A stretch of 64,000 nucleotides of DNA from Escherichia phage SUSP2. Made by a program: the position numbers and the translations under genes. The notes under the pieces are model-generated. The model did not search any database and was not told where the DNA came from. It saw nothing but the letters and a program-made list of their open reading frames with translations. The DNA lies in the sequence record KT454806; one strand, given 5' to 3'. This document shows, in pieces, positions 61,367 to 63,400 of the stretch; position 1 is the stretch's first letter, and each line of letters begins with the position of its first letter.

Positions 61367-61554
61367 TGGAACACCAATTTTAGGAGATTCCTATGAAGCC
61401 TTATGGTAGACACGGTAAAGTTGAAATTGCAAGTTGTGGTTGCTGTGCTTCTCACGCTGGTGAAGAAGATTACTACAAGTGGCGTACAGACCATCGTAGA
61501 CGCTTTCTCAGAAGAGATAAGAAGAGAGCTAGACAGGAATCTCAAAAGAACATT

Positions 61555-61631
61555 GCAGAATTAGTTCAAATGGATAGAGCAGCAGCCTACGAAGTTGCTT
61601 GTTAGGGGTTCGAATCCCTTATTCTGCACCA
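61555..61631 (+). tRNA. tRNA-Arg (ACG)
   Basis: Acceptor gcagaat/attctgc, anticodon stem-loop gcagc-ctacgaa-gttgc. Confidence 0.7.
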
Positions 61632-61650
61632 ATTTAAAGAGGCTATTTAA

Positions 61651-62208
61651 ATGAGATATTTGAAGTATGCTTCATGGATTTTCCTAGCTTTGCTAGAGCC
61701 ATTTGCAGCAATCTTAGCAGTAATCTTAGCACCCTTTGTGGTTCCATTCTACAGTGAGAGGAAAGGTCACTTACCTTTTGGATTCAGATGGATGGAAACT
61801 TATGATAACCCGATTGACGGTGACAAAGGTCACGTTGAGCGATGGGCTAAGATTCGAAAGATTGGTAAGCTCGGTGTTTATATGCAGAGAGTTGGATGGC
61901 TCTGGAGAAACAAAGCTTATAACTTCTCTTACCATGTATTAGGAAGAGATGTAAAAGATGTTACTAAGTGGAAAGGTAATATCAACGTAAGTTCTAACCC
62001 TGAAGATAATCAGACAGGTTATCTCCTGATGTGGAACAGTAATGCTTGGGGTTTATTCGCTTTTATCCCGTCAATTAAAATCTTTGGTAAACAATTTTAC
62101 TGGAGAATTTATGTTGGTTGGAAACTTAAAAGTGTTGTCCCAGAAGAAAGAGCATTTTCAAGGGAAAGAATTATGTTGGCATTCTTTATTCATCCACTAA
62201 GAAAGTAA
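61651..62208 (+). CDS. membrane protein encoded inside tRNA island
   Basis: 185 aa; AAAGAGG RBS; hydrophobic N-terminus WIFLALLEPFAAILAVILAPFVVPF. Confidence 0.5.
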   Translation: MRYLKYASWIFLALLEPFAAILAVILAPFVVPFYSERKGHLPFGFRWMETYDNPIDGDKGHVERWAKIRKIGKLGVYMQRVGWLWRNKAYNFSYHVLGRDVKDVTKWKGNINVSSNPEDNQTGYLLMWNSNAWGLFAFIPSIKIFGKQFYWRIYVGWKLKSVVPEERAFSRERIMLAFFIHPLRK

Positions 62209-62216
62209 AGATTTAA

Positions 62217-62292
62217 AGGGGATTAGTTTACAAGGTTAAAACCTCGGTCTTTGAAATCGAAGAAGTTGGTTCAATTCCAACATCCCCCGCCA
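62217..62292 (+). tRNA. tRNA-Gln (UUG)
   Basis: Anticodon stem-loop tcggt-ctttgaa-atcga; unpaired 1-72. Confidence 0.6.
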
Positions 62293-62294
62293 AT

Positions 62295-62373
62295 GCTCCA
62301 TTACTCCAATTGGCAGAGAGGCCAGACTTAAAATCTGTGTTATGTATCGGTTCGAATCCGATATGGAGTACCA
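62295..62373 (+). tRNA. tRNA-Leu (UAA), short variable arm
   Basis: Paralog of 61289-61366; anticodon loop cttaaaa; A73. Confidence 0.55.
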
Positions 62374-62380
62374 AATTAAT

Positions 62381-62456
62381 AGCAGTGTAGCATAACTGGC
62401 AATGCTCCAGCCTCTGAAGCTGAAAGATTAAGGTTCAAATCCTTACGCTGCTGCCA
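62381..62456 (+). tRNA. tRNA-Gln (CUG)
   Basis: Anticodon loop ctctgaa, T-arm taagg-ttcaaat-cctta. Confidence 0.6.
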
Positions 62457-62487
62457 CTTCTAAGGGTTCTTACGAGAGTCCTTACAT

Positions 62488-62564
62488 GTGGCCTTATCAT
62501 AAATGGATAATGACCCATGCTGTGAACATGGTCTATACGGGTTCGATTCCCGTAGGTCACCCCA
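62488..62564 (+). tRNA. tRNA-His (GUG)
   Basis: Anticodon stem-loop ccatg-ctgtgaa-catgg, T-arm acggg-ttcgatt-cccgt. Confidence 0.7.
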
Positions 62565-62572
62565 AATTTAAT

Positions 62573-62648
62573 GGGTTAAGTAGCTTATATGGTTAAAGCG
62601 CGTGTCTGAAAAACATGAGAAGAGGGTTCAAATCCCACTAACCCGCCA
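62573..62648 (+). tRNA. tRNA-Phe (GAA)
   Basis: Anticodon loop ctgaaaa; T-arm gaggg-ttcaaat. Confidence 0.6.
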
Positions 62649-62665
62649 ATTTCAAAAGGTGCTTA

Positions 62666-63400
62666 ATGAAAGAGATGACAGAACAAGGTAAAGAGATTTT
62701 TAATCTCCTGAAATCCGGTAACGGGTTTTCTAACCCTCTTATTACTGGTGCAGCAATCCTTGGTGGCACAATTGCCGCTTCTACTTCATTAGTAAGCTCT
62801 ATTAGCTCGGTATCAGACCCTACAGTAAAAGATAAACTTATTGCTGCTGGTTTGACTACAGCCTTGTTAAGTAGCTTCTCAACGAGCCTTGGAAGCACTA
62901 CAACGACAACTAACACTTTGACTCAATACGGGCAGAAGTCTGTAGATGAGTTCTCATCACGTATGCAGGTAGCTAAAGGTTACTCTAACGTTATGGGTGC
63001 AGCAGGAGAACAAGTTGGTTGTACACCGTTTAGTGGAATCATGGGAGTAGCTACAGAGTACGGTCAAAAAGCTATGGATTTGATTAACACCTCCATAGAC
63101 ACTGTGAATGGCGTTCTAAGTGATTTGCAAGATGCAATCAACAAAGGACTAGATACTATATCTTCCTTAGCCTCACAAGCCGTTACAGCGATTAATCAGG
63201 GCATTGCTAAGATTACTGCATATGCTAATGAGGTCACTCAGATGATTGCAGATGAAGCAGCGTTAATTGCTGATTACTTGAAAACGAATATCAATGGTTT
63301 CCTTGCAGGTATCTTACCAGACTGGTTTGATGATGCTTGTAAAACTGGCGTGATTGATTCAATCGCAACTCCAGAAATGAAGGATGCCTTGAACAAATAA
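62666..63400 (+). CDS. Ser/Thr/Ala-rich protein encoded inside tRNA island
   Basis: 244 aa; low-complexity hydrophobic N-terminal half. Confidence 0.5.
   Translation: MKEMTEQGKEIFNLLKSGNGFSNPLITGAAILGGTIAASTSLVSSISSVSDPTVKDKLIAAGLTTALLSSFSTSLGSTTTTTNTLTQYGQKSVDEFSSRMQVAKGYSNVMGAAGEQVGCTPFSGIMGVATEYGQKAMDLINTSIDTVNGVLSDLQDAINKGLDTISSLASQAVTAINQGIAKITAYANEVTQMIADEAALIADYLKTNINGFLAGILPDWFDDACKTGVIDSIATPEMKDALNK

Follow-up and report, generated by a model that had tools for sequence, protein, structure and literature searches.

Results

Three reading frames lie within the tRNA island of SUSP2

Escherichia phage SUSP2 is a Felix O1-like myovirus (Ounavirinae, Suspvirus) with E. coli as host, and its DNA is ~97% identical to that of phiSUSP1, CHB7, and mistaenkt. 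We analyzed a 64,000-nt stretch of this phage (KT454806; hereafter the window), in which ARAGORN placed 25 tRNA genes, all on the plus strand, in an island at 58111-63578. A first-pass annotation had called three open reading frames inside the island, termed ORFs A, B, and C here, and all of them are present on the plus strand at precisely the coordinates it gave:

61299-61376, plus strand: tRNA-Leu(CAA) (ARAGORN; Rfam 44 bits)
61382-61386, plus strand: Shine-Dalgarno sequence of ORF A, AGGAG, spacer 6 nt, read from the sequence
61393-61605, plus strand: ORF A, 70 aa, composed of a 54-codon core and a 16-codon tail in tRNA-Arg
61393-61554, plus strand: ORF A core, codons 1-54, a basic peptide (pI 9.95) rich in Cys/His and Arg/Lys
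61555-61605, plus strand: ORF A tail, codons 55-70 and TAG, encoded by the 5' two-thirds of tRNA-Arg(ACG)
61555-61631, plus strand: tRNA-Arg(ACG), CCA encoded (ARAGORN; Rfam RF00005, 58.4 bits against a cut-off of 29)
61637-61642, plus strand: Shine-Dalgarno sequence of ORF B, AAGAGG, spacer 8 nt, within the tRNA-Arg trailer
61651-62208, plus strand: ORF B, DUF7338, 185 aa, pI 10.0, an N-terminal membrane helix (~3-33) and a helical/beta-sheet domain
62217-62292, plus strand: tRNA-Gln(UUG) (ARAGORN), the constant 3' neighbor of ORF B in Ounavirinae
62573-62648, plus strand: tRNA-Phe(GAA) (ARAGORN), the 5' neighbor of ORF C
62656-62661, plus strand: Shine-Dalgarno sequence of ORF C, AAGGTG, spacer 4 nt, in the tRNA-Phe trailer
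62666-63400, plus strand: ORF C, DUF7217, 244 aa, pI 4.4, acidic, 41% Ala+Gly+Ser+Thr, a long-helix bundle
63403-63495, plus strand: tRNA-Ser(GCU) (ARAGORN), beginning 2 nt past the ORF C stop codon

The ATG of ORF A lies 16 nt downstream of tRNA-Leu(CAA), and its Shine-Dalgarno sequence falls within the 3' trailer of that tRNA, CCAATTTTAGGAG. ORF B starts 19 nt past tRNA-Arg(ACG) across a junction, CCAATTTAAAGAGGCTATTTA, that is conserved among relatives, and stops 8 nt ahead of tRNA-Gln(UUG), while ORF C starts 17 nt past tRNA-Phe(GAA). ORF A overlaps tRNA-Arg(ACG) by 51 nt; the number of its codons ahead of the tRNA, previously put at about 54, is exactly 54.

As such, the arrangement is ordinary and already known, with all three ORFs annotated as hypothetical proteins in relatives. 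Felix O1 ORF48 (NP_944875) and ORF49 (NP_944879), together with their orthologs in phiSUSP1, SUSP2, mistaenkt, and VpaE1, occupy the same place between the same tRNAs (95-99% identity for B, ~84-100% for C, the 100% being that with the SUSP2 protein), show no substantive difference from ORFs B and C, and are hypothetical or conserved phage proteins there too. What is unusual is that ORF A, the smallest of the three, draws its last 16 codons and its stop codon from a working tRNA-Arg gene. Covariance score, anticodon, and conservation independent of ORF A identify tRNA-Arg(ACG) as a genuine tRNA, which is kept in Felixounavirus, where ORF A is missing.

ORF A joins a constrained core to a tRNA-encoded tail

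For the core of ORF A we obtained a pN/pS of 0.15, indicating purifying selection. The tail gave a pN/pS of 0.79 with non-synonymous changes at 6 of its 8 variable sites, and evolves as tRNA rather than as protein. Over the ORF, 15 of 24 variable columns fell at codon position 3 (binomial P = 0.003), an excess that was confined to its own frame; the selection signal as a whole draws on these 24 sites only. The frame was open in 15 of 15 distinct DNA versions of the 70-aa form, and the alignment contained a single indel, of 3 nt and in frame. Furthermore, phrog_10765 was matched over residues 1-70 of 70 (E 1.4e-50), with the qualification that this profile contains the tRNA-encoded tail and evidently derives from those overlapping annotations themselves.

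Moogle gp84 and phiSUSP1 YP_009199387 (phrog_10765) share the 54-residue core at 89-100% identity, and the 70-aa forms in relatives overlap tRNA-Arg exactly as ORF A does here. Silverhawkium gp86 and P0043 differ in carrying 82 extra nt, which result in a rarer, 80-aa protein with its own 25-residue tail and a TAA stop 1 nt ahead of tRNA-Arg; Silverhawkium and six further contigs entered our count of this long allele, and ORF A was open in all seven copies. The 82-nt segment was present in 1 of 50,697 phage records and was invariant, although the cores of the backgrounds carrying it differ at 12 sites. Regarding the polarity of this indel, the complete 80-aa gene looks ancestral, yet the zero diversity of the 82 nt and their rarity may point otherwise.

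Other sources of the conservation were considered and rejected. In HP1, stop codons interrupt both an alternative plus-strand frame (61403-61564), whose synonymous/non-synonymous count was 4/23, and an antisense ORF of 105 aa (61228-61545), which crosses tRNA-Leu(CAA) and tRNA-Val(UAC) in antisense. A structured RNA behind the conservation of 61377-61554 was marginal (z = -2.0) and would leave the period-3 pattern unexplained.

ORF A might still be non-functional: an insert between two tRNAs may contain the remains of a gene in decay, or a frame open by chance, which entered the annotation only through gene callers. Its distribution would fit: we found it in 40 of 50,697 phage records, in Suspvirus and Mooglevirus only, the homolog search returned no relatives outside this narrow clade, and in Felixounavirus the two tRNAs flanking the site are 5 nt apart. 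It also has no stop codon of its own, its tail is neutral at the protein level, and several annotators left it out (HP1, Sf14, Henu11, KMM4). A remnant or chance frame, however, is difficult to reconcile with the constraint on the core, with the position-3 excess in this frame only, or with the strong AGGAG at 6-nt spacing, and we regard this explanation as possible but doubtful. The first-pass annotation had offered "truncated or spurious"; ORF A does run into tRNA-Arg, but because of the low core pN/pS, the in-frame indel, the stop codons of rival frames in HP1, and the existence of the 80-aa allele, we judge it to be real. Taken together, the evidence favors a real gene with an incidental tail, whose functional part would be the first 54 residues, a clade-specific small basic protein.

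ORF C is a core gene next to the packaging module

Pfam PF23854 (DUF7217) matched ORF C with 280.2 bits (cut-off 29), aligning residues 8-242 to profile positions 2-237 of 238, and phrog_2114 matched with E 4.4e-108. Variable columns were found predominantly at codon position 3 (180/273), 23 of 23 distinct full-length copies were intact, and the C-terminal 40 residues were strictly conserved. DUF7217 occurs in 579 phage records and also in Ackermannviridae. All Ounavirinae carry it, Erwinia phages (45% identity) among them, and its position immediately ahead of a small ORF and TerL is constant. By this distribution, ORF C appears to be a core Ounavirinae gene fixed beside the packaging module, with the tRNAs rearranged around it.

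The earlier description of ORF C as Ser/Thr-rich is correct in composition (20.9% Ser+Thr), but "acidic amphipathic helical-bundle protein" is the more apt description. Its AlphaFold model consists of long helices. Some DUF7217 records carry the label "putative membrane protein"; in ORF C, the best 19-residue Kyte-Doolittle windows, 1.65 (residues 25-43) and 1.35 (in 57-77), are borderline, contain no charged residues, and are packed into the helical bundle with pLDDT >90. Tentatively, we consider ORF C to be probably non-structural and possibly membrane- or lipid-associating. A PHROG link of DUF7217 to a 500-aa "GTP-binding domain" family was discarded: a deep profile search did not confirm a multidomain architecture but returned 54 representatives only, nearly all single-domain and 220-290 aa long, and the CBA120 gene labelled "GTP-binding domain" is not the DUF7217 gene but a neighbor of it.

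A role of ORF C in the virion, as a structural or ejection protein (e.g., low-copy internal or tail-associated), seems improbable to us. The Felix O1 paper includes "Gp49" among the structural proteins, ORF49 being the gene with DUF7217; this call, however, came from a 51-kDa band against 25 kDa predicted for ORF49, which makes it unreliable as virion evidence, and gp49 is missing from the shotgun list of the same paper. One Ackermannviridae record labels a DUF7217 homolog "structural protein", and in either phage family DUF7217 adjoins genes for packaging or morphogenesis, whereas in VpaE1 the homolog is "hypothetical" while proteins detected by mass spectrometry are labelled structural, and the cryo-EM and mass spectrometry study of Sf14 makes no mention of its homolog, gp26. 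In PHROGs, ORF C also matched tape-measure and minor tail proteins weakly (E 2e-4 to 7e-3), as helices rich in Ala/Ser/Thr typically do. Neither ORF B nor ORF C is reported in the virion proteomes of VpaE1 and Sf14, which fits non-structural proteins without proving expression.

ORF B is an accessory gene encoding a membrane-anchored protein

ORF B was assigned to DUF7338 by Pfam PF24027 (207.5 bits, cut-off 27; residues 1-184 on profile 1-176 of 180) and matched phrog_2143 (E 1e-80). It has one strongly hydrophobic segment (Kyte-Doolittle 2.38, residues 9-27), and its model (pLDDT 94.5) places a transmembrane helix at residues 2-33, so that the earlier label "membrane protein" is valid in the sense of a single-pass anchor only; as a single-pass membrane-anchored protein, ORF B is well supported. 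No solved structural relative of the modelled domain was found. Among 32 homologs, down to 31% identity, the DUF7338 alignment retains 20 invariant columns, and ORF B shows the family architecture of an N-terminal hydrophobic helix with the motifs T-x-D-N...G-D, W-L-W-R-N-x-x-Y, and G-W-K-x-K. Codon position 3 accounts for 74 of 108 variable columns, and 22 of 22 distinct full-length copies are intact.

A tblastn search found DUF7338 in 563 phage records, among them T4-like and T5-like genomes (55-79% identity). By organism name, Citrobacter occurred in 12 records only, and Shigella was outside the ten most frequent names shown. In relatives, the slot between tRNA-Arg and tRNA-Gln is empty or contains a 228-nt ORF, both genes, or B alone; within this slot, ORF B is missing from Moogle, Sf13, Sf14, Michonne, Mordin, and Silverhawkium. 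The junctions of ORF B reuse the tRNA trailer motif. Judged from these comparisons, ORF B appears to be an accessory gene and a horizontally mobile cassette in a variable slot.

Our searches for a function of ORFs B and C yielded no homology or fold match pointing to one, and scans with NCBIfam and PADLOC gave nothing above noise. We found no named T4 ortholog of DUF7338; its carriers, including Slopekvirus, Gelderlandvirus, Dhakavirus, and Mosigvirus, list it as "hypothetical" as well. A literature search on DUF7338, DUF7217, and Felixounavirus transcriptomics returned nothing usable. Most likely, ORF B would act at the host envelope, in superinfection exclusion or another host-interaction function.

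We also considered a functional tie of DUF7338 to tRNA genes that goes beyond being cargo of a shared region, for example as a counter to tRNA-targeting host defenses. The gene is placed between tRNAs, or no more than ~1 kb from a tRNA, in six of eight lineages examined, namely Ounavirinae, KP15, S16, MX01, a T5-like contig, and an 85-kb contig whose tRNAs follow a different order; the 7.5-kb stretch examined in MX01 has only 2 tRNAs. One Mosigvirus and a 121-kb contig, however, have no tRNA within 3-3.5 kb of DUF7338, many tRNA-rich Moogleviruses do not carry the gene, and the three T4-like cases represent one ancestral tRNA-to-e plastic region. A membrane anchor has no obvious fit with tRNA biology, and DUF7338 had no PADLOC or other match. 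We hold such a tie to be very improbable.

The GenBank label "holin" on its ortholog in Citrobacter phage HP1 would make ORF B the holin that has long been sought in Felix O1-like phages, which is extremely unlikely. As in T4 holin T, which it loosely resembles, and in class I-III holins, a single N-terminal transmembrane helix is joined to a larger C-terminal domain in ORF B, and in a Mosigvirus the DUF7338 gene adjoins a lysis-inhibition gene. However, ORF B matched no holin family at E<=1 in searches of Pfam, PHROGs, and NCBIfam (DUF7338 being the sole Pfam match), no endolysin lies beside it within the window, and it is dispensable within the clade, where the phages without it in the slot still lyse their hosts. 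T4-like carriers of DUF7338 presumably retain their own t gene. In Felix O1, in which the holin is still without assignment, the candidates are gp79, gp116, gp118, gp119, and gp131; gp48, the DUF7338 protein, is not among them (PMC3185647).

In summary, the earlier view of ORFs B and C as genuine genes, preceded by ribosome-binding sites and fitted between tRNAs, is borne out by their families, their codon-level conservation, and their annotation in relatives. Both are also intact in every relative examined (22 distinct full-length copies of B and 23 of C).

Candidate transcription signals bracket the island

The following promoter- and terminator-like sites flank the three ORFs:

58055-58084, plus strand: promoter-like P1, TTGACA-18-TAAAGT with TG, ahead of the first tRNA; the island transcript may start here
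59518-59546, plus strand: promoter-like P2, TTGACA-17-TATAGT, 11 of 12 matches, the nearest plus-strand candidate upstream of ORFs A-C
63614-63673, plus strand: terminator-like hairpin, GCCCTG...CAGGGC then TTTTTT, past the last tRNA, read from the sequence
63739-63762, plus strand: second terminator-like hairpin with a T-run, from the consensus scan, conserved

The hexamers of P1 are conserved in relatives, and those of P2 are kept in most of 35 loci, with substitutions chiefly in the spacer. The first hairpin is conserved as well, and its homologous site in phage Michonne is annotated as a terminator. Between 59608 and 63600, the consensus scan detected no plus-strand promoter-like site and no convincing terminator, nor did it assign a promoter-like site to ORF A, B, or C individually. 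These calls are consensus matches, of which 14 were found against 16.2 expected in shuffled sequence, and phage promoters of another type, whether middle or late, would escape the scan. At this level, the ORFs and tRNAs have the layout of a mixed tRNA-mRNA operon: one strand, no internal promoter or terminator, and boundaries formed by an upstream promoter and a downstream terminator.

Most likely, ORFs A-C are co-transcribed with the tRNAs and freed by tRNA processing. Transcription would start at upstream sigma-70-type promoters (candidates at 58055 and 59518) and continue through to the terminators past tRNA-Cys. The Shine-Dalgarno sequence of each ORF is carried in a conserved tRNA trailer (CCAATTT..AGG), and host RNase P and RNase E would cut out the flanking tRNAs, releasing the mRNAs. 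It is because the ORFs start 16-19 nt past tRNA 3' ends, with the Shine-Dalgarno sequence in the trailer, that we consider tRNA excision the most likely source of the mRNAs.

Discussion

We consider it probable that the island holds three genuine genes in a tRNA operon, co-transcribed with the tRNAs, of which C is core, B accessory, and A clade-specific. Mixed tRNA-mRNA transcripts are well established. RNase P and RNase E process the thrU-tyrU-glyT-thrT-tufB operon of E. coli; further cases are the tRNA cluster of T4, which contains the tRNA.2-.4 ORFs, and the tRNA region of T5. As in these systems, same-strand protein genes without promoters of their own are tightly packed with tRNAs in SUSP2, and mRNA ends would be set by tRNA excision. 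The difference is that the ORFs here are bracketed by tRNAs on both sides within 2-19 nt, and that one of them runs 51 nt into the downstream tRNA.

For this ORF, mitochondrial tRNA punctuation offers an analogy, with no homology implied. In mitochondria, tRNA excision defines mRNA ends, leaving some stop codons incomplete, and polyadenylation completes them. Likewise, tRNAs directly flank the coding sequences in SUSP2, and excision would strip the stop codon from ORF A. Unlike in mitochondria, the cut message would end in ...AAC AUU, to which added A residues would contribute Lys codons and no stop. Since ORF A ends at a TAG inside tRNA-Arg, its full-length translation would require unprocessed precursor RNA, and RNase P cleavage at tRNA-Arg would leave a message without a stop.

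A more far-reaching proposal, that ORF A is translated with its tail and stop codon supplied by a functional tRNA-Arg and that the phage exploits the competition between translation and RNase P maturation, is a long shot in our estimation. If true, one RNA could serve either full-length translation of ORF A or maturation of tRNA-Arg(ACG), but not both: a ribosome entering tRNA-Arg would unfold the tRNA, and a stop-less message cut by RNase P would need ribosome rescue. Such competition could couple the ORF A product, or the supply of tRNA-Arg, to the state of host RNA processing and translation, and the 70-aa and 80-aa forms would then represent natural "coupled" and "uncoupled" alleles.

Our results mainly tidy annotation, in that the island ORFs are real genes of named families, and of the GenBank labels on some of their records, "holin" is not supported, and "structural protein" and "membrane protein" find no clear support. 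For DUF7338 and DUF7217 alike, the carriers among sequenced enterobacterial phages number over 550, with many Felix O1-like phages among them. That unrelated phage families share DUF7338 at 55-60% identity hints at a host target that is conserved. ORF A provides a clean natural case of a coding frame terminating within a tRNA gene of the same strand, and the "uncoupled" allele offers a comparison; how translation, RNase P, and ribosome rescue act together on a phage polycistronic precursor can thus be tested directly.

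Three genes between the tRNAs

The 6-kb segment 58000-64000 shares 95-97% DNA identity with phiSUSP1, CHB7 and mistaenkt (Escherichia phages; Ounavirinae, Suspvirus) and matches a total of 334 Felix O1-like phage records. ARAGORN placed 25 tRNA genes at 58111-63578, exclusively on the + strand, and Rfam confirmed them. The coordinates of three ORFs reported among these tRNAs in the first-pass annotation proved exact.

Coding ORFs and the overlapped tRNA in the island
61393-61605, +, ORF A: 70 aa; starts 16 nt past tRNA-Leu(CAA); 51-nt overlap with tRNA-Arg(ACG)
61555-61631, +, tRNA-Arg(ACG): first three bases are codon 55 of ORF A
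61651-62208, +, ORF B: 185 aa; starts 19 nt past tRNA-Arg, ends 8 nt before tRNA-Gln(UUG)
62666-63400, +, ORF C: 244 aa; starts 17 nt past tRNA-Phe, ends 2 nt before tRNA-Ser(GCU)

Shine-Dalgarno candidates (AGGAG, AAGAGG and AAGGTG for ORFs A, B and C) precede the start codons by 6, 8 and 4 nt and fall within a trailer motif, CCAATTT..AGG, that is repeated after many island tRNAs. Trailers whose common motif CCAATTT(A)AA..AGG also serves the following ORF as Shine-Dalgarno sequence occupy 61373-61392, 61628-61650, 62645-62665 and 63492-63502, and the motif recurs at loci L011, L012, L021 and L051.

Over their full lengths, ORF B belongs to Pfam DUF7338 (207.5 bits, cut-off 27; also phrog_2143) and ORF C to DUF7217 (280.2 bits, cut-off 29; also phrog_2114); a phrog_10765 match covers ORF A end to end. 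Escherichia phage SUSP2 has a protein 100% identical to that of ORF C, and relatives' records annotate all three ORFs (in Felix O1, ORF B is ORF48 and ORF C is ORF49). Across related loci, ORF B is intact in 22 of 22 distinct copies and ORF C in 23 of 23, with variable columns concentrated at codon position 3 (positions 1:2:3, 24:10:74 and 61:32:180, respectively). The earlier observation of two genes with good ribosome-binding sites fitted between tRNAs is thus confirmed, and its interpretation is supported.

A short conserved gene ending inside tRNA-Arg

As had been noticed, ORF A runs into tRNA-Arg(ACG) after 54 codons. The overlapped tRNA is genuine (58.4 bits, cut-off 29). The unique 178 nt of ORF A occur in 40 phage records only, all Suspvirus or Mooglevirus; in Felixounavirus loci, the tRNA-Leu(CAA)-tRNA-Arg(ACG) gap measures 5 nt. 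The frame is open in all 15 distinct DNA versions, its sole indel being a 3-nt in-frame deletion in phage Sf14, and 15 of 24 variable columns fall at codon position 3 (binomial P = 0.003). Synonymous and non-synonymous changes number 15/12 in this frame, compared with 4/23 and 6/21 in the other + frames. By Nei-Gojobori estimates, codons 1-54 have a pN/pS of 0.15 and the 16 codons within the tRNA one of 0.79, so the core behaves like a protein, the tail like a tRNA. RNA structure is a weak explanation for the conservation (z = -2.0), and both an alternative + frame and an antisense 105-aa ORF across the gene were rejected because each gains a stop codon in phage HP1. Where the earlier reading offered truncated or spurious, ORF A is more probably a real gene with an incidental tail.

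The basic core peptide (pI 9.95) combines a C-x-C-C-x-x-H cluster with a run rich in Arg and Lys; from this composition, a nucleic-acid-binding role may be guessed. Protein searches found no relatives beyond the Suspvirus/Mooglevirus clade and turned up an 80-aa form within it. This long allele, present in Silverhawkium and at least six other contigs, carries 82 extra nt flanked by TGC microhomology, which encode a separate 25-residue tail, closed by a TAA stop 1 nt short of tRNA-Arg. The segment (2479-2560 in locus L045; 1663-1744 in L052-L057) is identical in all seven copies, the ORF A cores there differ at 12 of 162 sites, and only 1 of 50,697 phage records contains it. It may have been inserted recently and spread by recombination, or it may be under strong constraint. 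A comparable overlap is annotated in the T4-like tRNA region of Salmonella phage S16 (L050 1931-2576), where the gp75 CDS shares 10 nt with the same-strand tRNA-Arg(UCU).

ORF B is a mobile cassette

The interval between tRNA-Arg(ACG) and tRNA-Gln(UUG), in which ORF B resides, varies among relatives.

Contents of the tRNA-Arg(ACG)/tRNA-Gln(UUG) slot
Empty: Moogle, Sf13, Sf14, Michonne, Mordin, Silverhawkium
228-nt ORF without ORF B: ESh19, ESh21, SFPB, Henu11, KMM4
228-nt ORF and ORF B: HP1
ORF B only: the window, phiSUSP1, mistaenkt, Felix O1

The 3' junction of ORF B with tRNA-Gln is invariant, and its 5' junction is a reused trailer motif, also where tRNA-Leu(CAA) precedes it without tRNA-Arg. 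This suggests that tRNA trailers are where recombination adds or removes cassettes. Four Felixounavirus loci lacking tRNA-Arg(ACG) have DUF7338 after tRNA-Leu(CAA) with the same trailer junction. ORF B is an accessory gene. Separately, an 88-kb record that bears the label of an E. coli plasmid (CP164854.1, locus L053) is evidently a Mooglevirus-like phage genome, with a tandemly duplicated tRNA-Ala/tRNA-Gly pair and two copies of a 75-aa ORF in the tRNA-Arg/tRNA-Gln slot.

DUF7338 occurs in 563 phage records, with 55-60% identity in T4-like genera and 79% in one T5-like contig. It lies between tRNAs or at most about 1 kb from one in six of eight lineages examined; in a Mosigvirus, it adjoins the lysis-inhibition gene with no tRNA nearby. 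The tRNA neighbourhood of T4-like phages is the classic plastic tRNA-to-e region, so shared residence in plastic regions is the more economical account of this proximity. The 'holin' label of the HP1 ortholog is unsupported, since profile searches gave no holin-family match and clade members with an empty slot appear able to dispense with DUF7338.

ORF C is a core gene

DUF7217 is found in all Ounavirinae, including Erwinia phages (45% identity), where it comes after the last tRNA and ahead of small ORFs, TerL and portal. ORF C is therefore a core gene next to the packaging module, and the tRNAs were rearranged around ORF C. Among 1.84 billion representatives, only 54 relatives were found, almost all of 220-290 aa. 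Ackermannviridae have a stand-alone homolog (~30% identity), located between major head and tail-completion genes with no tRNA nearby.

The protein is acidic (pI 4.4; Ala+Gly+Ser+Thr = 41%), with a borderline hydropathy value for a membrane span. Long helices are predicted with high confidence at residues 25-47, 65-112, 131-160 and 165-212, the C-terminal 40 residues are strictly conserved and lie outside the predicted model, and the best fold matches are generic helical bundles (E >= 0.28).

Evidence for a place in the virion is weak. The Felix O1 paper (PMC3185647) names 'Gp49' as a virion protein from a 51-kDa gel band, speculating that it is the sheath, and its shotgun list lacks it. ORF49 of the record (L048 7772-8506) encodes 244 aa, ~25 kDa against 51 kDa; either the paper's numbering differs from that of the record or its assignment is wrong. 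Felix O1 ORF42 (471 aa), upstream of the island, would fit a band of about 51 kDa (size estimated from length). The VpaE1 supplement lists the DUF7217 homolog as plain hypothetical, and the Sf14 cryo-EM and MS paper nowhere mentions gp26, the ORF C homolog.

Other features of the island

A partial tRNA match at 59004-59057 (+; RF00005, 31.3 bits, model positions 9-63), in the 428-nt tRNA-Asp/tRNA-Lys spacer, is probably a decayed tRNA gene. No ORF in the long spacers 59856-60387 and 60477-60715 exceeds 56 aa. Relatives' islands contain HNH homing-endonuclease genes (mistaenkt_113, mistaenkt_115, phiSUSP1 agp136, Felix O1 ORF44/45/47, Michonne88), and these spacers may be vacant or degraded slots for such genes. 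Directly upstream of the island (~56640-58055, +) lies the 471-aa homolog of Felix O1 ORF42, a type labelled 'RNA-binding protein' in the phiSUSP1 and Felix O1 RefSeq records, which might be functionally related to the adjoining 25-tRNA array. A 66-aa ORF at 63800-64000 (+), directly 5' of the large terminase gene, is kept across the subfamily; its Felix O1 counterpart, ORF51, is 100% identical in VpaE1. The small terminase subunit was not identified in Felix O1 (PMC3185647), and by position this ORF is a candidate.

Expression and RNA processing

Predicted transcription signals
58055-58084, +, promoter-like site near the island
59518-59546, +, promoter-like site near the island
59579-59608, +, promoter-like site near the island
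63614-63673, +, terminator-like hairpin
63739-63762, +, terminator-like hairpin

The three promoter-like sites are the sole ones on the + strand near the island. The promoter hexamers and hairpins are kept in relatives, and no comparable signal of either kind was found on the + strand of 59608-63600. Only 2-19 nt separate the ORFs from flanking tRNAs, which leaves no room for the ORFs' own promoters. ORFs A-C are probably co-transcribed with the island tRNAs, and their mRNA ends are probably set by tRNA excision through host RNase P and RNase E. Such processing would have precedents in the tufB operon of E. coli and the tRNA cluster of T4, in which tRNA excision sets mRNA ends. RNase P cleavage at 61555 would strip ORF A of its stop codon, so that the 70-aa product could come from the unprocessed precursor only. 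Functional coupling of ORF A translation to tRNA-Arg maturation seems improbable.

Relation to known tRNA islands

Protein-coding ORFs scattered among tRNA genes are a familiar feature of phages T4 and T5. [quoted passage not shown] Literature searches, none aimed specifically at the overlap, returned no paper discussing ORF A and tRNA-Arg. Our analysis adds the rejection of loose GenBank functional labels, the distinction of a mobile cassette (ORF B) from a core gene (ORF C), and a characterisation of the ORF A/tRNA-Arg overlap, with its selection contrast and two alleles.
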